A stretch of DNA of 64,000 nucleotides from an uncultured Holophagales bacterium (GTDB lineage: Bacteria > Acidobacteriota > Thermoanaerobaculia > Multivoradales > UBA5704): contig CAWJGT010000009.1 of the NCBI GenBank assembly GCA_963842525.1, positions 1,728,001-1,792,000 of the forward strand, written 5' to 3'. A program made the translations under genes and the position numbers. Position 1 is the first letter of the stretch, and the number at the start of each line of letters is the position of its first letter. Shown in pieces: positions 8,149 through 17,181 of the stretch. A model generated the notes under the pieces. It saw only the letters and a list, made by a program, of their open reading frames with translations, had not been told where the DNA came from and made no database searches.

Positions 8149-9576
8149 TTACGGACGGCGGGCGGTCATCCGCGCCACGATCTCCAGGAACTGTGCGTCC
8201 TTCCGCAGCTCCGCGAAAGCCGGCTCCGCCTCCAGGGCCTTCGCATCAGAAAAGCCCTTGTCCACGGCCATGCTCAGGGATTCCAGTGCCTTCTTGTGGC
8301 CGGGCTTTCCCTTGAGGGCGTACAGGGTCGCGATTTCCACCCACGGGCCGGGATCTTCTGGACGGATTTCGGCTCCGACGGACAGCATGAAGATGGCGCG
8401 GTCGTACTGCTTTTTCGCGACGAGCGCCTGCGGCTGGTAAAACCGTAGCTGGCCCAGGTACATGTTGAGGACCCGCTTGGCGGCGAGGCTCTCCTCGGTA
8501 TCGGCGGCATGGGCCGACTCCATGCGCTTCTTGAGCTCCGGGATCTTGAGCGCGGCGGCGACCTGCGCCACGGTCACCGGCTCGTTGCCCGGACTGGTGC
8601 GCATCAGGATGCCGGGCGCGTTGGCGAGGATCTCCTTGTCCCGGCGGTCCCGGGCTTCGCGGTCGCGCAGCTCCTGCTGGCAGGCCGGCGAGGCGGCCAG
8701 GGCCGCCGCCTCGCGTTCGGCCTCCGACACATCCCGTAGACCGGCATAGTCGACGGCCATGGCCGACCAGGTGTGGAGGGCGTCCCCTGGATGGACCGCG
8801 GCCTGCGCCCGTGCCCGCTCGCGGTCCGCGGCCCATTCCGCCTCGATCAGCGCGGGGCTCTTCTCCCGCAGCCCCTTTTTCATCGCCTGAAGCTCCATCC
8901 AGCCGACCGCTCTGCTGGCGAGCTCCACCGGCGGCCAGTCATGCGTGCCGGCGAAGCCCTCGATGCGGTGCGGGACGGCGAGCGCCGCGAGCGCCTGATC
9001 GAGGTCCCGCATCTCGTAGTAGTTGAAATCGCGGTCGCCATACGTGCCGTAGAAGACGAAGGGGTTGTCCCGCTTGGGCTGCGATCCGATGGGGAAGCCG
9101 GCGCTGGCTCCGATGACCCCGGCGATCGACCCGGGCGCCGTGAGAGCCAGGACGCAGGCGAAGCGCACCGTGCCCGAGTAGCCTGCCGCGTACACGCGCC
9201 GGTCGTCGATCGAAAAGCGGGCATGGGTGTCCGCCCACAACGCCTTCATGGCCGCGAAGTTACCCTCCATCGGCCGGTCGCCCCCCACGTCGCTCGCCGT
9301 GCTCCAGGAGCTGACCACGATCCAGCCGTAGGTCTCGGCAGCCCGCTGAAACAGCTCAGCCACTCTCTTGCCGTCCCCGCGCGCGTCGAAGGCATAGAGG
9401 ACCGGCCACTGGCGCTCCGGGGTGTACGTGGAAGGAAGATAGAGGGCGTATGCCTGGTCCGGCTGTTTCTCGCAGACCACCCGCTCGATCACCGTCCCCC
9501 GTGGCAGCTCGGCCGCGGTGGCGCCGGACGCGAAGAGGTGGAGGAGGGCCAGGAGGAAGGTCAGGGTGCGGGGCAT
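8149..9576 (-). CDS. Secreted alpha/beta-hydrolase (esterase-like) with C-terminal TPR region
   Basis: Signal peptide MPRTLTFLL; YALYLP, RVYAAGYSGT nucleophile-elbow-like motif, GTHDWP; helical C-terminus. Confidence 0.7.
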   Translation of the reverse strand: MPRTLTFLLALLHLFASGATAAELPRGTVIERVVCEKQPDQAYALYLPSTYTPERQWPVLYAFDARGDGKRVAELFQRAAETYGWIVVSSWSTASDVGGDRPMEGNFAAMKALWADTHARFSIDDRRVYAAGYSGTVRFACVLALTAPGSIAGVIGASAGFPIGSQPKRDNPFVFYGTYGDRDFNYYEMRDLDQALAALAVPHRIEGFAGTHDWPPVELASRAVGWMELQAMKKGLREKSPALIEAEWAADRERARAQAAVHPGDALHTWSAMAVDYAGLRDVSEAEREAAALAASPACQQELRDREARDRRDKEILANAPGILMRTSPGNEPVTVAQVAAALKIPELKKRMESAHAADTEESLAAKRVLNMYLGQLRFYQPQALVAKKQYDRAIFMLSVGAEIRPEDPGPWVEIATLYALKGKPGHKKALESLSMAVDKGFSDAKALEAEPAFAELRKDAQFLEIVARMTARRP

Positions 9577-9701
9577 CGGAGCATGATAGCGGGTGGTCGC
9601 CTGACAGTGGAACAGCGTGAGCTGTTCTCGCCTTGCAAGACGGCTCGACTCCTTGCGAGGGGCCTTCCGCTCCTTGCTAGAATTCACCCGAGGAGGATGC
9701 G

Positions 9702-9770
9702 ATGGAAACCGCTGTTACCAAGAAAGGCCAGACGAATATTCCGGCGGCGATCCGCAAGCGGTATCAAGAT
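9702..9770 (+). pseudogene. Remnant N-terminus of an AbrB/MazE-type antitoxin
   Basis: AGGAGG RBS at 9691, then METAVTKKGQTNIPAAIRKRYQ (AbrB-like KGQxxIPxxIR), after which the sequence runs into the opposite-strand gene. Confidence 0.6.
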
Positions 9771-11040
9771 CCTCTTTCGCGCGCCCCGCCTCCAGCCAGA
9801 GCACCGCCAAGTCCAAGCCCGAAAGGGCTGCGTCGTAGGGCAGCTCCTCGGCGGTGAAGACCCGTTGCACCTGCTCCAGCCGCTCCATGGCTTCCCGCTT
9901 CTGCCCCAACCCGGCCAGGGTCTTCGCTTCCAGCCGGTCGAGGCGGGTGAGGTCCAGCGCGTTGCGCTGCTGTTCCGCGAGCTCGCGTACCTTCGGCAGC
10001 AGCTCTGCCGCTTCCGCGTAGCGTTCCATGTAACAGAAGTTTCTCGCAGTCTTAAACCGCAGCGAAAGAAGCAGGTGCGGATCGCACGACGCTTCAACAG
10101 GAGCTTCAGCTTCATCCAAGACGGCCAGCGCAGCTTCAAATTCCCCCATCTGATCGAAGACGCGCTCTTTTTCAAGCAGGATCATAGCGGCCGCCGATCT
10201 GTCGTCGCCACGGCTCGCAAAAGCCTGGTCGAAGAGGACCAAGGCTTTTGAAAACTGCCGTTGCTCCCGCCGCAGGGCAGCTTCAAAAAGGTGCAACCCC
10301 CATTCGGGGAGCAACCCTTCGGGGTCGGTTCCGGACTTCCAGAGGTCCCTGGCCATGGTGAAGGCCTGATCGGCCCCCTCGAAGTCATTCGCGACGCGGC
10401 GTGCGTTGCCGATGTGAAGCCAGCAAAAGCCTAGGAGCCGGCGTTGGAAGCTTCCCTCCTCTGCCACCCGCTCGGCGATGAAGAGGGCCAGATCCGCGAG
10501 ATCTAGCGCCTCGTCGGTCTTGTGGGCGGCCGCCCGCACGCTTGCCGTGCACACCCGCACGGCCAACGCCCAGCTCCGCGAAGCCCGCAGTGCAAATCCG
10601 AGCAACCGACGCCGCTTGCGCATCGGCAAGGGATCCAGCGCCGCCCAGACCTCCTCGGCTTCCCGCAACGCCACTATAGAAGACTTGCGGCCCGGTGCCG
10701 CAACTCCCTCTTCGATCCCATCAGAGGCTACCGAAAGCTGCGCGATGTCGAGGGTCACCTGCGCAGGATCCGCGGCGGCAACTCTGTGGCGAGCGGCGGA
10801 AATCAGCGCAGTGTAGAAGCGCCGGACGTGCACAACCAGGGACCACTCAAGGCCCGCGGTCCTCGCCATCCGCCGGAGGGCAGCTTCCGGCGGAGCCTTC
10901 TTGCCTGCCTCATAGTCCGAGAGGTCGCTCTGCGACACCCCGGCCTTCTCCCCGAAATCGTTCTGCGACTTCCTGCCGGCGTGGAAGCGCAGGAAACGGA
11001 CCACATACTTCAGAACCTCGGGATCACCCCTCTTCGCCAT
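9715..11040 (-). CDS. XRE helix-turn-helix regulator with C-terminal TPR-like helical repeats; 3' end probably truncated
   Basis: SQNDFGEKAGVSQSDLSDYEAGKKAP HTH; helical repeats such as HIGNARRVANDFEGADQAF and EAALRREQRQFSKALVLFDQA. Confidence 0.8.
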   Translation of the reverse strand: MAKRGDPEVLKYVVRFLRFHAGRKSQNDFGEKAGVSQSDLSDYEAGKKAPPEAALRRMARTAGLEWSLVVHVRRFYTALISAARHRVAAADPAQVTLDIAQLSVASDGIEEGVAAPGRKSSIVALREAEEVWAALDPLPMRKRRRLLGFALRASRSWALAVRVCTASVRAAAHKTDEALDLADLALFIAERVAEEGSFQRRLLGFCWLHIGNARRVANDFEGADQAFTMARDLWKSGTDPEGLLPEWGLHLFEAALRREQRQFSKALVLFDQAFASRGDDRSAAAMILLEKERVFDQMGEFEAALAVLDEAEAPVEASCDPHLLLSLRFKTARNFCYMERYAEAAELLPKVRELAEQQRNALDLTRLDRLEAKTLAGLGQKREAMERLEQVQRVFTAEELPYDAALSGLDLAVLWLEAGRAKEDLDTACGSPPEYSSGLSW

Positions 11041-11153
11041 GCCTCTCACCCCTCTGTGCTGGACATGAGCTATGGTCGTTTGGTGCACTTTTGTCCAAAG
11101 AGGCGCCCGCACGGCCATGGGGGCCGCGCCGGAGCGCTCTCCCGGGAGCCATC

Positions 11154-11414
11154 ATGCTCAGCACCTCTCTGCGTCGCAAGGTCATCCTTCTCCTGTTAGT
11201 CGCGGTCCTTGCCGTTCCCTGGGCTGCTCTGGCCGGGCCACCGACCGGGCACCTTCGGGCGGTGGAAGCCAACGTCCCCGTACACCCCGATTTCTTCGGC
11301 GGGCTCTGGAGTTGGCTCACGAGGCTGTGGAGCGAAACGGGCTGCAGCATCGACCCGCTCGGCCACTGCATCCCCGGCACTAGAATAGGACGCGCCAAGA
11401 CCCGCTTCCAATGA
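11154..11414 (+). CDS. Small secreted protein (86 aa) with Trp-rich helix and C-SIDPLGH-C loop; candidate propeptide
   Basis: GGGAG RBS; MLSTSLRRKVILLLLVAVLAVPWAALA signal peptide; LWSWLTRLWSETGCSIDPLGHC; stop overlaps the next start (ATGA). Confidence 0.7.
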   Translation: MLSTSLRRKVILLLLVAVLAVPWAALAGPPTGHLRAVEANVPVHPDFFGGLWSWLTRLWSETGCSIDPLGHCIPGTRIGRAKTRFQ

Positions 11415-14130
11415 CCGATCAAGAACGCTCCTCCCCTGGCAAGGACCGGCCGGCTTATCTCGGCGCCTACCGGTTGGAGCGCCCGCTGGGGCAGGGTGGA
11501 ATGGGGGAGGTGTTCCTTGCTTGGGACGACCGGCTGGGACGGCGGGTGGCGATCAAACGGCTCCGTCCTGGCTCCGGGGATCCGGAGGGACGGGAGCGAC
11601 TCCGCCGCGAGGCCCGCGCAGCGGCGGGCGTCTCCCATCCGGCCCTGGTGCAGGTCTACGACGTCGTCCTCGATCCGGCGGGCGATGCGGTGGTCCTCGA
11701 GTATGTCGAGGGGCGGACCTTCGCCGAGCTGCTGGCCGGCGGGACCTGCCCACCGGGGCTTGCTGTCCGCCTGGGGAGGGAGATCGCCGAGGGCCTCGCG
11801 GCCGCCCACGCGGCCGGCCTGGTCCACCGCGACCTCAAGGCCGAGAATGTGATCCTCACCCCTTCCAGCCACGCCAAGGTCCTCGACTTCGGCCTTGCCC
11901 GCCCGGTGGGGCCGGAGGCGCAGCGGCTCACCGATCACGGGATGCTCCTCGGGACCTATCACGCCATGTCGCCCGAGCAGGCCCGCGGCGCCGAGCTGGA
12001 CGGGCGCTCCGATCTCTTCTCGCTGGGCGTCCTGCTCTACGAGCTTCTGACCGGCCGCTCGCCGTTCCGGGGCAGCGACCCCGTGGATACCCTGCAGCGG
12101 GTGACCTCGGCCGAGCCGATCCCGCTTGCGCAGCTACGGCCGGACCTCCCCCCTGAGATCGGTGCGCTCGTCAGCCGCCTCCTCGCCAAGGACCCTGGAG
12201 CACGGCCGGCGAATGCGGGCATTGTTGCGCGCGAGCTTGCGGCGATCAGCGAGCTTCCTGCCCTTGCCGGCTGTGGCGATGAGGCGTGGGGTGGAGGCCT
12301 GTGGAGCGACCTGCCGACGGCTGGGCCTGGACCGGGATTGCCGGCGATGTCTGCGATGGGGGCGACGCCGGCGACCGCCCCAGCCCTTGCCCCTGCCGCG
12401 GGTCCCAGGATCTCCGGAAGCTCGTTCGCACCGCCGCGCTTCCGTCTTCGCCGGCCGGCTGTCTGGGTGGCGATGGTCCTCGTGGGGCTCGGCCTCCTGG
12501 GCAGCCTCGCCCTGCACTATCGCGCCCGGCCGCCGCGGCGCGTGGTGGTGCTGCGGCCGGTCGTGACTTCCGGATCTCCAGAGACCCCGGAAATCACCGA
12601 ACGGCTGTCCCTCGCTGCCTCCGGGGTCCTCGTCGCCAGCCTGGCCGGGCTCACGTCGTTTGAGGGCCTGGCTCCTCTCGATCCGTCCCAGGCTGGAACG
12701 GCTGGAGACGCCGCCGGCTCGCTGGCCGGCGCGGCGCGGGCGGCAGCGGCGGACGAGGTGCTCTCGGCGACTCTCGAACGAACGGAAGGCGAGCTTGCCC
12801 GCCTCACTCTCCGCCGGGTTGCCGCGGATGGGCAAGTCTTGTGGGCCGAAGGCTTCGAGATCCCCACGGCGCCGGCCGATCTCCACCTGCTGGCCGACGC
12901 CGTCTACGTCCATCTCCGGAGGGCCTGGCCGCAAGCGCGACGGCGCGACGGCACTCCCGACCTCGACGCGCGCGACGAGGACTACGCGGCCTTCCTCGAT
13001 ATCCGCCGCCGGATCGATTCGGGTCGGTCGCCGCTGGCGCCGGAGCTCGTCCGCCTGGAGGAGATCCTTCGCCGCTCGCCGCGCTTCCTCGAAGCCCAGC
13101 TCCAGGCGGCGCGCTGCGCTGAAAGCCTCTATCAATCGAAGCGCGATCCCGATTTCCTGGTCCGTGGCAACCGCTTCGTGGCCGCGGCGCGGGAGATTGC
13201 TCCCAACGATCCCCGGCCGCTCGCCGAGCTTTTCCGCCTCTCCGTCGCCTCCGGCCAGACAGCAGAGGCTCGAGAAGGCCCTGGCGGAGCTTGCGCGGCT
13301 CCAGCCGGCAGACCCCGAGCTTGCGGTCCTGCGTGCGAGCCTCGCCGAGAGCCGCGGCCGGACGGACGACGCGCTCGCCGAGCTGCGCGCCGCGGTGACC
13401 CAGGTGCCGTCCTGGAGGAACCTCTATCGTCTGGCCGACCTCGCCGCCCGGAGCGGGCGCGTTGCCGAGGCACGCGGGCATTTCCAGGCGCTCCTCGCCC
13501 GCTCGCCCGGCAATCTCTGGGCGCGCGAGAAGCTTGCCGAGATGGAGCTGCTCTACGGCGATCTGCCCCGCGCCGAGCAGCTTTACTCGGACCTCCTCGC
13601 CACCTCGGACCAGCGTAGCTACTGGACCAACCTCGGCCTCACCCGATTCCTCCTTGGCCGGCCGGCGGCGGCGGTCGAGGCCTATCGCAAGGCGCTCGGC
13701 TTCGATCCCGAGCACGTCTACGTCCGCTTGAACCTGGCCGATGCCCTTCTCGCCCTGGGCCGGGAAGGGGAGGCGAAGGACCTCTATGCCCGGGTCCTCG
13801 GCGCGCTGGAGGCGAACCGGAAGGCGGCGCCTCCGAGCGCGGTCGACGAGATGACCCGCGCTCAGTGTCTGGTCCAGCTCGGCCGCGCCCGCGAGGCGGT
13901 CGAGCTCACCCAGCAGACGCTGCAGGCGAACCCCGGCGATCCTCAGGTGGTCTATCTGGCGTCGCTCGTCTACGCCCTGGCCGGCGACCGCGCCTCCGCG
14001 CTCGTCAACGCCGAAGCCGCGCTCGACAAGGGCGTCCAGCCGCGCTGGTTCCGGCTCGCCGCCTTTGCTCCGCTCGCGGGCGACTCCGAGCTTCTCGGCG
14101 CGGCTCGCCGGCCACGATCAACGGCACTAA
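11411..14130 (+). CDS. Hanks-type Ser/Thr protein kinase with TM helix and TPR region; frameshifts near 13270 and 14100
   Basis: LGQGGMGEV, VAIK, HRDLKAEN, DFGLA, MSPEQ; TM VWVAMVLVGLGLLG; TPRs continue in ORF 12660-14267. Confidence 0.85.
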
Positions 14131-14136
14131 CCCGCC

Positions 14137-14883
14137 CTAACCAGGAGGGCCACCGTTGTCGATCACCGGGTCGCCGGTCGCCAGCGTCTCGCCGCCCGCG
14201 CCCACGAGCCTCATGTGGTAGGTGTACTTGCCTAGCGGGGCCCGCCACTGGCCCGCTCCGACGATGAACTGGCTCGCCCCGGAGTCGCTGCCCGCAGAGC
14301 GCAGGCTGGTGAGGCTCTGGAAGGGGCCGATCAGCGGGTGCCGGGCACCCTGCGGGCCTTCGGAAACGTACAGGTAGACCGACCCTTCGGGTGGAAGATC
14401 ATAGAAGGTCCAGAACGGAGAGTCGCCGTCGTTCAGCCGCAGGGTGAAGGGCTCGGCGATCAGGAGCCCTTGCTCCCCATCGTAGCGGACCCTCACCTCG
14501 GGGGTGGTGTCGACGCGGGTGGCGTGGTTGTCGAGCGTGGCAGCCGAGCGGGTGGAGACGGTCTGCGGGGCCTCCTGCGAGCCGAAAACGAGCGCGGCAT
14601 GGTAGGTGTGAACGCCACCATGCTCTGGACCGGCATTGCCCTTGCCCACCAGGGTGAGGAGGTCCGGGGAGGTCTGCAGGACGTGGAAGGGGCCGAGTCG
14701 GCGGTCGAAGCGCAGGGCCGGGACGGCTTGGAGATCCGCGGGAACGTCGAGGAACTTCCAGACCACCCGTTGATCGTCCTGCAGCTCGAAGCCGGGCGGG
14801 TCGATGACCAGAAACGGTCCTTCGGCATCCTCCTGATAGGAGACCTCGACGACGAGCTTCTGAGGCATTTCCTGATTTGTCAT
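14137..14883 (-). CDS. Hypothetical protein made of two related beta-rich domains ending ATLDN and DPVIDN
   Basis: Purine-rich RBS before MTNQEMPQ; internal duplication (W.F.D.P, GPF..L, TYH..LV). Confidence 0.65.
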   Translation of the reverse strand: MTNQEMPQKLVVEVSYQEDAEGPFLVIDPPGFELQDDQRVVWKFLDVPADLQAVPALRFDRRLGPFHVLQTSPDLLTLVGKGNAGPEHGGVHTYHAALVFGSQEAPQTVSTRSAATLDNHATRVDTTPEVRVRYDGEQGLLIAEPFTLRLNDGDSPFWTFYDLPPEGSVYLYVSEGPQGARHPLIGPFQSLTSLRSAGSDSGASQFIVGAGQWRAPLGKYTYHMRLVGAGGETLATGDPVIDNGGPPG

Positions 14884-14932
14884 GTTTCCATCCCTCTCCC
14901 TTGGTAACTCGAAAGTCATGCGCGAGCCCTGG

Positions 14933-15119
14933 TCCCTCACCCCCGGCCCCTCTCCCATCCGCACTCCCGACCACCGGGAGAGGGGAGCCCACCGCCCAAG
15001 CCCATGCCCAGGGTTTACACCCTGGGCTACCGAATGTCGCCCTCCGGGCTCGCGAGAGCCCGGGATTCCAGAGCCCGGAGGGCGAAACTGGGTAGCCCCG
15101 GGTGTCAACCCGGGGCGAG
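14933..15119. repeat. REP cluster: CCCTCACCCCC...GGGAGAGGGG hairpin plus a 110-bp palindromic element also found at 21235-21344
   Basis: cccagggtttacaccctggg...gagcccggagggcg...ccccgggtgtcaacccgggg, near-identical second copy. Confidence 0.8.
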
Positions 15120-15186: not shown

Positions 15187-17181
15187 ATGCCGGACACAGA
15201 GACGCCGCGCCCGCGGCTGATCGCGGTTGCCGGGCCGCGGGCCGGATCGGTCTTCAAGCTTGGGGACACGGAGCTGGTCATCGGCCGGCAGGCCGGCTGC
15301 TATGTCCAGCTTCGGGACCTCGAGGTGTCGCGCCGCCACTGCTCGGTCACGAGGATCGCAGGAAGTGCCGCAGGAAGTGCCGCAGGAAGTGCCAGCCGTT
15401 TCGTCGTGCGCGATCTGGGCAGCCGCCATGGCACCTTCGTCAACGGCTTGGCCGTGACCGAACGCGAGCTGGTGGAAGGGGATGGGATCGGCGCCGGCAG
15501 CTCGCTGCTCATCTTTGCAACCGGCGAGGAGCCGGCCGGCGAGCGTTGCGCGGTCCAGCTCGACGAGGGCGCGTGGACCGCCGACACCTCGGTCCAGCTC
15601 GCGCCGCGCGAGAGCGCCTACCTGCGGCCGGCGCCTTCAGGGTCTCCAGTGCCGGCGATATTGCCAGAGGCCGGCTCGCGCCTGCTGCGTGACCTCTCGC
15701 TGCTGGTGCGGGTCAGCGCGGTCCTCCAGTCCTTGCCGGCGGTCGAGCCGCTCTGCCGCCGCCTCCTCGGCCTGCTCTTCGAGGCGATACCTGCCGAGCG
15801 CGCCGCCTTTCTCCTCCTCGACCGGGAGGACGGCGAACCGGCTCTCGCCTACACCCTCGAACGCCGCAGCGGCTCCGCCCGGCCCTTCAAGGTGAGCCGC
15901 ACGGTGGTTGCGCGGGTGCTCGGGGAGCGGACCGGCCTGCTCGCCAGCGATTCGCTGCGGACCTCCGACCTGGGAGAGGCCGCGAGCGTGCGGGCGGCGC
16001 GCCTGCGCTCACTCCTCGCCGTCCCCGTGCTCCACCTGGACCGCGCTCTGGGGCTCATCTATCTCGATACGCCCGAGAGCGGAGACGCGGTGCGCTTCGA
16101 CCGCGGCCACCTGGAGCTGGCGACCGCGGTGGCCGGCCTTACCGCGCCGGCCCTCGCCAACGCCCGCCGCATCGAGCGGCTGGAGGCGGAGCGGCGAGCC
16201 GCTGCCGCGGGAGCCCTTGGCCGCGGGCTGGTGGGGAAGAGCCCGCGCCTCTTCGCCGTCCGCGGCTTCCTCGCCCGGGTGGCGCCCACCGACTCGACCG
16301 TCCTCCTCCGCGGCGAGAGCGGCACGGGCAAAGAGCTTGCGGCGCGGGCGATCCATGAGGGGAGCCCGCGCGCCGGCGGCCCCTTCGTCGCCATCAACTG
16401 CGCCACCCTGTCCGAAACCCTGCTCGAAAGCGAGCTCTTCGGCCACGAGAAAGGGGCCTTCACCGGCGCCGTGGCGCAAAAGATCGGCAAGCTCGAAGCA
16501 GCGGAAGGCGGCACCCTCTTCCTGGACGAGGTGGGGGAGATCCCGGTCCACCTTCAGGCCAAGCTCCTCCGCGCCCTGGAAGAACGCGAGCTGGTGCGGG
16601 TGGGGAGCACGCGCGCTATCAGAGTCGACGTGCGGGTGATCGCCGCCACCCACCGCGACCTCGAAAAAGGGATCGCCACCGGGACCTTCCGCGCCGACCT
16701 CTACTATCGCCTGAACGTCCTCGCCTTGGAGCTGCCGCCGCTGCGCGACCGGCGCGAGGACATCCCACTCCTGGCCCGGCATTTCGTCGCCCGCCTGGGA
16801 CCGCGGCTCGGCCGCCCTGCCGCCGCCTTCACCCCGGAGGCCCTGGACTGCCTGTTGCGCTACCCCTGGCCGGGCAACGTGCGCGAGCTCGCCAACGCCA
16901 TCGAGCGTGCCCTGGTGCTGGGGGACGGGGACTGGCTGCGGCCCGAAGACCTCCCCGAAGCAGTGGTCGAGGCCGGCGGCCGGAGCGCAGGGCGCGAAGC
17001 CGGCCCCGTCGCCCCCTACCACGAGGCGCTCCTGCGTCTGAAGGAAGACCTGGTGCTCACAGCGATCGAGCAGGCCGCCGGCAACGTCACCCGGGCCGCC
17101 GAGCTCCTGGGCATCCACCCAAACTACCTCCACCGCCTGATCCGTAACCTCGGCCTGCGGCCCCGTCTCGGGCTCTCCTGA
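15187..17181 (+). CDS. Sigma54-dependent enhancer-binding protein: FHA, GAF, AAA+, Fis HTH
   Basis: FHA ([14 protein letters not shown]), [42 protein letters not shown]. Confidence 0.95.

Follow-up and report, generated by a model that had tools for sequence, protein, structure and literature searches.

The divergent gene pair at positions 9715-11414 of the window, by which we mean the whole stretch of 64,000 nucleotides analysed here, is one worn copy of a lineage-specific module of two genes, one for a small, putatively secreted peptide and the other for a TPR protein. The module exists in about 60 copies per genome, it is kept across genera, and it duplicates and diverges as a unit. By analogy with the RRNPP systems, we propose that it works as a pre-peptide and a cytoplasmic TPR sensor, and that the pair in the window is one rearranged copy of it. 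We give this reading a probability of about 45%.

Linkage and co-divergence of peptide and receptor genes

By homology, the 86-aa small ORF in the window (P0002; 11154-11414, plus strand) belongs to a family of putative secreted peptides with DPxG repeats. Its codon log-odds score is +17.5 bits (0.20 per codon, comparable to the neighbouring genes). Its relatives in its own 9.95-Mb genome number 23 at the protein level by phmmer, and 64 by iterated profile. Amongst the 62 distinct family ORFs, DPxG is present in all 62, and a signal-like N-terminus, according to a heuristic of our own, in 57. The peptides carry from one to four tandem DPxG units (a single one in 24/62). Each unit is an invariant frame enclosing three hypervariable positions, at which the likeness is 0.36 between repeats of one precursor vs 0.16 across precursors. 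A Trp-rich amphipathic helix is conserved family-wide. P0002 matches nothing in the curated families of Pfam, NCBIfam, PHROGs and PADLOC. A word-indexed homolog search with P0002 returns only P0002 itself amongst 11 candidates, a blank due to the method, since a full HMM scan of public data with the peptide family finds 1,995 representatives (about 2,000 sequence clusters). The peptide family is present in 24/24 genomes of the same taxonomic family and in 7/16 others of the order. In the ESM Atlas, the nearest clusters are labelled “hypothetical protein” and are commonest in Acidobacteriota (score 0.89), which we report as a lead only.

The initial annotation suggested looking for peptide homologs linked to XRE-TPR genes, and such linkage to XRE-TPR or other TPR genes is found in each of the samples. 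In the window's own genome, 55/64 peptide genes have a paralog of P0001, the receptor gene in the window, no more than 1 kb away, compared to a chance mean of 1.8 and maximum of 7 in 200 trials with random positions. Conversely, a family peptide is encoded at no more than this distance from 65/86 of the TPR paralog genes. For G024, which belongs to another genus, a TPR-family match is at most 1 kb away at 37/42 peptide loci, and the pairing is kept in 13/13 loci fetched from other genomes. No enzyme or transporter gene recurs alongside the 55 paired loci, and neither does any third gene.

There are two classes of these pairs. Class A pairs HTH-TPR regulators with Cys-loop peptides, and class B pairs TPR proteins that have a probable zinc anti-sigma-like N-terminus with peptides ending in DPxG. 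An XRE HTH is found in 22 of 71 receptor-family N-termini, every one at a class-A locus, and the Cys loop appears in 14/14 class-A peptides vs 2/23 in class B. The DPxG of class-B precursors is at most 2 residues from the C-terminal end in 18/23 cases, and the class-B peptide gene is upstream of the receptor gene. The receptor tree has two clades, which match gene orientation. Class A usually has a second TPR gene; it is missing at the window locus, where an unrelated kinase stands in that place. Covariation of peptide and receptor, another check that the initial annotation had named, is also found: the peptide and receptor distances correlate with a Mantel r of 0.42 for all 37 pairs, 0.70 for class A (14 pairs) and 0.50 for class B (23 pairs), each with p ≤ 0.0005.

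The rearranged pair in the window

A signal-like N-terminus, a Trp-rich helix and the motif GCSIDPLGHC had been described for the 86-aa ORF, and all are present in the sequence. The signal-peptide-like N-terminus occupies residues 1-27 (11154-11234, plus strand) and reads MLSTSLRRK, then 12 hydrophobic residues, then AALA/G. The alignment places a Trp-rich amphipathic segment, DFFGGLWSWLTRLWS, at residues 46-60 (11289-11333), with LWSWLTRLW at residues 51-59; in the class-A peptides (n = 17) W52 is invariant and W59 nearly so. One G-C-x-I-D-P-x-G-x-C unit follows at residues 63-72 (11340-11369), which in P0002 reads G63-C64-SIDPLGH-C72. Of the initial suggestion that a Cys loop closes a disulfide here, it stands that two cysteines frame the unit in the window, but they are not the conserved core: in an alignment of 30 family members, D67 and P68 are invariant and the flanking glycines G63 and G70 are at least 90% conserved. 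Judged from the sequences, the invariant core of the family is DPxG rather than the cysteines. P0002 ends in an aberrant tail, IGRAKTRFQ (11385-11411), where close paralogs instead have a linker and a second repeat in the alignment, and the 16 residues beyond its last DPxG make it an outlier within the family.

The receptor gene, P0001, runs on the minus strand at 9715-11040 and encodes a 441-aa class-A XRE-HTH/TPR regulator. From the first ATG, the ORF would cover 9715-11118 and 467 aa, but the ATG at 11040 is the likely start, since the closest paralog (C11:116434-117933, phmmer E-value 5.5e-141) has the same one (MARKGDPAVLKY...). The Pfam family HTH_31 matches residues 17-64 (10849-10992) with 32.7 bits, for a cut-off of 27, and HTH_3 scores 28.4 bits, also above its cut-off, which identifies an HTH of the Cro/C1 type characteristic of the XRE family. 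TPR_MalT (163-423) and TPR_12 are both under the Pfam cut-offs. The AlphaFold2 model (mean pLDDT 88.5) predicts the HTH, with helices within residues 7-61, a linker, and repeated helix pairs over residues 121-417. The TPR-like superhelix at residues 121-423 (9772-10680) has pLDDT mostly above 90. The C-terminal part had been expected to fold as a peptide-binding TPR, and it is modelled as a superhelix of that kind. Reading P0001 by eye, we see neither a signal peptide nor a membrane segment.

That the 3' end of the receptor looked truncated had already been remarked, and the comparison bears it out. Paralogs and relatives have 60 more residues beyond ...LEAGRAKE, a conserved C-terminus absent from P0001. 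In the alignments, P0001 has in their place a foreign tail of 18 residues, DLDTACGSPPEYSSGLSW (9718-9771, minus strand), which is the antisense of an antitoxin-gene remnant. The remnant (9702-9770, plus strand) comprises some 22 codons from the 5' end of a gene for an AbrB/SpoVT-like antitoxin, identified by its match to G002, and it marks a rearrangement junction. The block 9629-9772 has 85% identity to G002, whose antitoxin ORF has 76 aa; the Pfam PrlF_antitoxin match has an E-value of 0.032 only. One metagenome contig spans the junction stretch 9670-9876 with zero differences (two soil DNA runs, scattered coverage). No ortholog of the window's pair is found in 5 same-genus genomes, whose loci we compared by blastn, as tblastx synteny drowned in GC-rich noise.

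As annotated initially, the regulator and the 86-aa ORF diverge from a common spacer of 113 bp (11041-11153). A Shine-Dalgarno-like GGGAG at 11144-11148 sits 5 nt upstream of the ATG of the small ORF, and both this site and the start are shared with the C11 paralog. Simple scans of the spacer detect neither a sigma-70-like promoter nor an inverted repeat, and Rfam has zero matches in 9000-12000 of the window.

Proposed function and its alternatives

In the mechanism that we propose, the product of the pre-peptide gene would combine a Trp-rich helix with a Sec-type signal and with one to four tandem repeats, each formed around an invariant DPxG turn, which in class A would be framed by two cysteines. 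The partner gene would encode a cytoplasmic TPR sensor with an output domain that is an XRE HTH (class A) or probably zinc anti-sigma-like (class B). By analogy with RRNPP, the peptide would be exported and cut, releasing the DPxG unit or units, which would be taken up again and dock on the concave side of the cognate TPR domain. Binding would then alter the activity of the regulator at the shared divergent promoter and at other targets. If each peptide is read by its cognate TPR domain, each cassette would be a private signalling channel. The more specific claim, that genomes of this Thermoanaerobaculia family hold about 60 such private channels, with Sec-exported DPxG peptides, their own TPR receptors, and XRE or soluble anti-sigma-like outputs, as an independent or much-diverged RRNPP-like system in a diderm phylum that is not known to have gene-encoded peptide pheromones read by receptors in the cytoplasm, is tentative, and we put it somewhat below an even bet.

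The genome encodes three OppA-type binding proteins, an observation that is permissive only for peptide import. For the intact C11 pair, a predicted complex between TPR residues 115-487 and residues 28-100 of the peptide scores 0.01, to which we give no weight either way. Several points count against signalling. The Trp-rich helix is conserved beyond what a pro-region needs, a hint that the active form may be a larger secreted product. Disulfide loops formed in the periplasm would become reduced upon import. As the host is presumably diderm, an intercellular signal would have to cross the outer membrane too.

Alternatively, the TPR regulator may sense something else and control the adjacent gene, whose secreted product of 50-100 residues would work extracellularly, for example as a mini-protein that acts on membranes, binds metal or mediates adhesion, with no feedback on the TPR protein. 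The family-wide amphipathic helix is in favour of such a cargo, and so are Cys loops that fit an oxidising compartment and Asp/Gly-rich DPxG repeats that, we infer, could bind cations; a dedicated regulator is also compatible with the tight linkage and the co-divergence. However, some 60 regulators for some 60 similar cargoes are hard to motivate, and no immunity, export or modification genes recur nearby. The class-B precursors that end at or within 2 residues of DPxG (18/23) do so like C-terminal pheromones, and the fact that a single TPR family bears either of two output domains, each with its own peptide type, argues that the peptide is the common input. We regard a cargo function as unlikely. 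The type III secretion TPR chaperones that double as co-activators, as in IpgC-MxiE, offer a different model, in which the TPR domain would retain the unexported pre-peptide, e.g. via the Trp-rich helix, and export would free the regulator. The conserved helix adjoins the signal peptide, both partners begin in the cytoplasm, and an import step would be unnecessary. Such secretion-coupled partner switching is nonetheless quite improbable: a Sec signal implies rapid export by the general route, which is not known to require a private chaperone, and the repeated hypervariable DPxG units would go unexplained.

The signalling reading does not extend to the downstream gene, a Ser/Thr kinase with a TPR tail (11411-14267, plus strand) that we place outside the module. 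The initial annotation offered it as a possible second receptor for the peptide, from the overlap of the peptide stop with the kinase start. The overlap is there (ATGA at 11411-11414), with TPR repeats downstream, but only 2 of the 64 peptide genes have a kinase at a distance of 1 kb or less. The other peptide-adjacent kinase (C31) ranks 13 of 62 by similarity, so that the two are not close paralogs, and at 6/6 kinase-homolog loci in the same genus there is no peptide or TPR gene in the flanks. The kinase gene is also frameshifted near 13258-13272; Pfam Pkinase scores 148.6 bits, and the TPR repeats are in a different frame (ORF 12660-14267). For P0003, PADLOC and PHROGs give only generic kinase matches. 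A receptor role of the kinase is thus very improbable. A last question is whether the pair in the window, whatever the family does, is a dead relic of rearrangement, which we consider possible at rather less than even odds. The 60 conserved residues at the C-terminus of the receptor are gone, and what stands there is read antisense from a truncated antitoxin gene. The peptide has a single unit left and carries an unrelated tail of 9 residues, the second TPR gene that class A usually has is absent, and no ortholog is found in 5 same-genus genomes. Against this, both frames are still open, the HTH is predicted intact and so, with confidence, are the TPR helices to about residue 417, the C11 paralog shares the Shine-Dalgarno-like site and the start, and a single DPxG unit is common within the family. 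The copy in the window is a rearranged and probably decaying member, and the chances that it still works are about even.

Relation to known systems

In soil Acidobacteriota, the module repeats an RRNPP-like anatomy some 60 times per genome, and its sequence clusters in public data number about 2,000. If signalling is true, this mode of communication would extend to a diderm, hard-to-culture phylum, the cassettes would be a natural set of orthogonal peptide-receptor pairs, and many unnamed small ORFs and TPR regulators would acquire a function. Even without signalling, the module is a large, unannotated gene family that can be easily tested. In the literature, searched outside supplements, we find no account of this peptide/TPR system. 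The search for RRNPP in Acidobacteria gives nothing, the one for quorum sensing in Thermoanaerobaculia gives nothing relevant by title and abstract, and the one for the IDPNG motif gives nothing relevant.

NCBIfam NF047412 (GCG_CRPN prefix-to-repeats) and Pfam DUF6799 resemble the peptides as short secreted proteins with Cys-containing repeats. Neither has any match in the window's genome, P0002 included; amongst 25 metagenome relatives there are sub-threshold NF047412 matches in 3, and 1 passes the DUF6799 cut-off. The class-B receptors recall zinc anti-sigma factors (ChrR, RslA, RsiW) in their N-terminal domain, where one H and two C are invariant across 18 sequences. Most have them spaced as H-x4-C-x2-C, vs H-x3-C-x2-C in the zinc anti-sigma factors, and the partner to which the domain is joined is a TPR sensor rather than a membrane anchor. 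The profile of this domain finds ChrR with an E-value of 0.006 and RslA with 0.036, one copy alone is above the cut-off of Pfam zf-HC2, and the fold comparisons give Foldseek E-values of at least 1.1 and a VIA Z of 4.9, within the background rows. An adjacent sigma gene is seldom present: by eye, a Sigma70_r2 match is within about 2.5 kb of only two class-B cassettes.

The closest likeness is to RRNPP(A) systems (Rap-Phr, NprR-NprX, PlcR-PapR, Rgg-SHP, AimR-AimP). The passages on definition and scope in PMC10075063, PMC9765709 and PMC11343458 describe RRNPP in Firmicutes, and the survey tool in the first of these is described there as applied to Firmicutes and viruses alone. The initial proposal of an RRNPP-like signalling pair keeps its support from layout, linkage and TPR fold, but no sequence homology to RRNPP receptors is detected. 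No RRNPP-specific family of Pfam, NCBIfam, PHROG or PADLOC is matched, the receptors giving generic HTH matches only (in Pfam also TPR), and RRNPP receptors are absent from the best 60 rows when the receptor-family profile is compared to PDB sequences. Fold searches suggest that the P0001 model resembles peptide-binding TPRs including Rap, NprR and PlcR. In VIA-align, the Z scores are 22.2 for LGN, 21.0 for APPBP2, 20.6 for RapJ (rmsd 3.9, 271 aligned), 20.0 for RapF and 19.5 for NprR; RRNPP receptors thus tie with unrelated TPR proteins, with LGN first, which we count against the signalling model. Large expansions of peptide-receptor pairs within one genome are described for Paenibacillus, where the relevant passage of PMC7425212 gives “more than 25” pairs in some species. 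Those are Gram-positive RRNPP members, unrelated by sequence to the module, and its count is more than twice as high.

The module and RRNPP(A) share a small propeptide gene adjacent to the gene of a cytoplasmic TPR receptor, whose N-terminus is an HTH or, Rap-style, a protein-binding domain, and many paralogous pairs per genome. In both, some propeptides have tandem candidate signal units and others a candidate signal at the C-terminus; RRNPP propeptides with tandemly duplicated pheromones are mentioned in PMC11343458. The module differs in the invariant DPxG frame, the conserved Trp-rich helix and the class-A Cys loop of its peptides, in the class-B peptide gene being upstream of the receptor gene, and in peptide binding, which for the module is a candidate property. 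RRNPP(A) systems belong to Bacillota and mobile elements, whereas the module, with about 60 cassettes per genome, belongs to a presumably diderm lineage of Acidobacteriota, a host that the initial annotation had guessed and with which the nearest named relatives, Thermoanaerobaculia MAGs, agree.

Regulator, small ORF and a rearranged locus

The regulator ORF lies at 9715-11118 on the minus strand. Translation likely begins from the ATG at 11040, equivalent to the start of the closest paralog (MARKGDPAVLKY), and the resulting protein (P0001) has 441 aa. An XRE-type helix-turn-helix (HTH) occupies residues 17-64 (Pfam HTH_31, 32.7 bits vs a cut-off of 27), and TPR_MalT and TPR_12 matches below the Pfam cut-off extend across residues 163-423. 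The AlphaFold2 model, obtained from an alignment of 38 family members (mean pLDDT 88.5), places the HTH in helices 7-61, followed by a poorly modelled linker (103-116) and regular paired helices (121-417). The small ORF, P0002 (11154-11414, plus strand, 86 aa), is found 113 bp from the P0001 gene, with a GGGAG 5 nt upstream of its ATG and a codon log-odds of +17.5 bits, using a model trained on long ORFs of the same genome clustered by codon usage. Its N-terminus has a basic start, then twelve hydrophobic residues, then AALA followed by G; residues 51-59 are LWSWLTRLW, and the loop reads G63-C64-S-I-D-P-L-G-H-C72. The initial annotation is correct in every detail of its description of these features: coordinates, Pfam and the model agree on an HTH/TPR protein divergent from an 86-aa ORF across 113 bp; the signal-like N-terminus, the LWSWLTRLW helix and GCSIDPLGHC are all present in P0002; and the peptide's stop codon and the start codon of a Ser/Thr kinase gene overlap in an ATGA at 11411-11414.

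The suspected truncation of the receptor 3' end is also borne out. After ...LEAGRAKE, the closest paralog and its relatives carry 60 conserved residues (...MxWIFxxQGIxREALAALxLFCEAA...), in place of which P0001 ends in 18 unrelated ones. This tail is encoded on the antisense strand of a block of 146 bp (9629-9772). A same-genus genome has a locus 85% identical to the block, where the counterpart supplies the RBS and the opening codons of an intact AbrB/SpoVT-like antitoxin gene (76 aa). The block end at 9772 coincides exactly with the loss of family resemblance in P0001 (residue 423/424), and the antitoxin 5' remnant (9702-9770, plus strand, RBS kept, about 22 codons) abuts the truncated receptor 3' end. 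A 207-nt soil-metagenome contig covers 9670-9876 with zero differences; because this contig may derive from the original sample, it does not count as independent support. P0002 aligns with its paralogs through ...CIPGTR77 and then departs as IGRAKTRFQ, at a point where the paralogs continue into a second unit, and the kinase stands in place of the second TPR gene usual at loci of its class (class A, below). The window copy is rearranged and degraded, and five same-genus genomes contain no contiguous ortholog of the locus.

A peptide family linked to TPR regulators

A word-indexed search with P0002 returns the query as its sole match, and P0002 has zero matches to Pfam and NCBIfam models. Using phmmer against six-frame ORFs of its own genome (9.95 Mb, 34 contigs), we find 23 matches at E <= 1e-3, which four more profile rounds increase to 64 (62 distinct sequences). 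Identical cassette copies occur near contig ends (C8:907-1215 and C10:32941-33249; C9:3995-4405 and C18:2597-3007), and the assembly seems to be interrupted by the repeated cassettes, so the true copy number may be slightly different. All 62 distinct ORFs include at least one [hydrophobic]-D-P-x-G motif (one unit in 24, two in 21, three in 16 and four in one), and 57 have a signal-like N-terminus by our simple heuristic. In an alignment of 30 peptides, D67 and P68 are the sole invariant positions, with G63 and G70 at least 90% conserved; amongst the 17 closest peptides, W52, C64, D67, P68 and G70 are invariant. Thus, the DPxG turn, rather than the disulfide, is the conserved core. From cassette to cassette, the repeat unit is free to vary at three positions (the one that follows the first Cys, the one that separates P from G, and the one that follows G), and agreement at these positions is 0.36 within one precursor vs 0.16 between precursors.

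The peptides are linked to regulator genes. A phmmer search with P0001 (E <= 1e-3) yields 102 ORF-level matches in its own genome, which merge into 86 genes. A P0001 paralog is found within 1 kb of 55 of the 64 peptide ORFs, and within 300 bp of 48; for the same number of random positions, the count within 1 kb averages 1.8 and never exceeds 7 (200 trials). Conversely, a family peptide is encoded within 1 kb of 65/86 TPR genes, and five more have a motif-level candidate. When the other neighbour genes of the 55 loci are clustered, enzymes, proteases and transporters do not recur. The one neighbour seen repeatedly is a small XRE protein that stands alone, encoded next to the TPR gene at nine loci, mostly of class B (L014, L018, L024, L027, L032, L040, L042, L052, L055); it may be a split DNA-binding partner. 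The last of these loci, L055 (C9:424196-439537), is a 15-kb tandem array of six class-B cassettes, whose peptides each carry one C-I-D-P-x-G unit, divergent in sequence, close to the C-terminus. Separately, a sigma-54-promoter-like sequence (TGGCAC...TTGC-like, spacing one base short) appears in the spacers upstream of the peptide genes at C9:580140 and C10:32941, and the window includes a sigma-54 activator gene at 15187-17181.

The pairing extends to other genomes. Peptide-profile matches occur in all 24 other same-family genomes (4 to 52 each) and in 7/16 genomes from other families of the order; in 120 other genomes across the phylum, with 39 candidates scored per genome, none reaches E <= 1e-5. 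In a four-contig genome of another genus (G024), 37 of 42 peptide loci have a TPR-family match within 1 kb, TPR homologs flank the peptide in 11/11 of the best peptide loci from other genomes, and the pairing is kept at both loci reached via P0001 (a Thermoanaerobaculum sp. MAG and a Thermoanaerobaculia bacterium MAG, 51-52% identity to P0001). ESM Atlas neighbours are unnamed clusters, commonest in Acidobacteriota. When all 1.84 billion representative proteins are scanned with a 17-member HMM profile, 1,995 match at E <= 1e-3 (858 at E <= 1e-10). We compared 25 of the best with curated libraries: three match NF047412 (GCG_CRPN) below threshold, one scores above the cut-off of DUF6799, and one passes that of a fungal defensin model solely via summed 11-residue repeat matches. 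The NF047412 and DUF6799 models find no match in the window's genome.

The co-variation of peptide and regulator that the initial annotation proposed to check holds at the level of distances. For 37 distinct peptide-TPR pairs, pairwise peptide and receptor distances correlate with r = 0.42 (Mantel, 2,000 permutations), with r = 0.70 for 14 class-A pairs and r = 0.50 for 23 class-B pairs (p <= 0.0005 in each case), and therefore the cassettes duplicate and diverge as units. By itself this correlation amounts to unit-wise duplication and falls short of contact co-evolution.

The Ser/Thr kinase does not share this linkage. The gene (11411-14267, plus strand) changes reading frame near 13258-13272, through a genuine frameshift or a fault in the assembly. 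The kinase and its transmembrane part share the frame of 11411, and the TPR repeats that of ORF 12660-14267. The suggestion that it is a second receptor fails on three counts: a kinase is within 1 kb of only 2/64 peptide ORFs, the second peptide-adjacent kinase ranks 13th of 62 by similarity, and none of six kinase-homolog loci in same-genus genomes has a cassette in its flanks. A 323-aa ORF on the minus strand (14137-15108) scores positive for coding and has no counterpart among Pfam and NCBIfam models.

Two classes of module

The 44 full-length TPR partners fall into two clades in a FastTree tree (midpoint-rooted, clades read from topology), and this division matches the layout of the genes. 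Class A (20 proteins, P0001 included) has TPR genes on the strand opposite the peptide, often two per locus, one divergent from and one convergent with the peptide gene, and the two proteins are frequently mutual closest relatives. Class-A proteins carry the XRE HTH, which is present in 22/71 scanned N-termini, every one at class-A loci. In class B (24 proteins), the TPR gene is directly downstream of the peptide gene on the same strand. Pfam gives no match within the first 150 residues of class-B proteins; one copy passes the Pfam zf-HC2 cut-off. An H-x(2-4)-C-x2-C motif occurs in 18/24, with H, C and C invariant in their alignment. This domain is probably anti-sigma-like: its profile against PDB sequences finds ChrR (E 0.006) and RslA (E 0.036), and fold searches with its model (pLDDT 78) have RslA, MucA, ChrR and RsiW at the top, with scores not above background (Foldseek E >= 1.1, VIA Z 4.9). 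Peptide type tracks receptor class. Cys-loop peptides are 14/14 in class A and 2/23 in class B, and peptides ending within two residues of DPxG are 0/14 and 18/23, counts that are not independent events because kin share history.

Comparison with RRNPP systems

The observation behind the initial annotation is confirmed, and its interpretation as an RRNPP-like signalling pair is supported in part: the module stands, as does its likeness to RRNPP in layout, the kinase idea does not, and the window copy is degraded. The predicted TPR fold of P0001 matches peptide-binding TPR proteins, with VIA Z scores of 22.2 for LGN, 21.0 for APPBP2, 20.6 for RapJ, 20.0 for RapF and 19.5 for NprR, and a Foldseek E of 4.9e-4 for PlcR. 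RRNPP and other TPR proteins tie, so the fold singles out no RRNPP; moreover, in a search of PDB sequences with the family profile, no RRNPP receptor is among the best 60 rows. We therefore favor a system that works like RRNPP and do not assign it to that family. The peptide would be exported and then bound by its cognate cytoplasmic TPR receptor, as in RRNPP systems, steps that we infer by analogy. Doubts centre on the Trp-rich helix, which is strongly conserved, on the cytoplasmic fate of a disulfide loop, and on the outer membrane; the three OppA-type binding proteins encoded in the genome only permit peptide import.

Our literature searches on RRNPP in Acidobacteria, the IDPNG motif and Thermoanaerobaculia quorum sensing (the last set judged by title and abstract) found no description. 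Papers on RRNPP assign these systems to Bacillota, which are Gram-positive, and to the mobile elements of this phylum (PMC10075063, PMC9765709, PMC11343458), and the detection tool is described in one of them as applied to Firmicutes and viruses only (PMC10075063). The likeness to RRNPP consists of a small, putatively exported propeptide beside a cytoplasmic TPR protein, the candidate receptor, whose other domain controls transcription. Further shared traits are that genes devoted to export or modification are not needed, that paralogs are many, and that candidate signal units occur in tandem.
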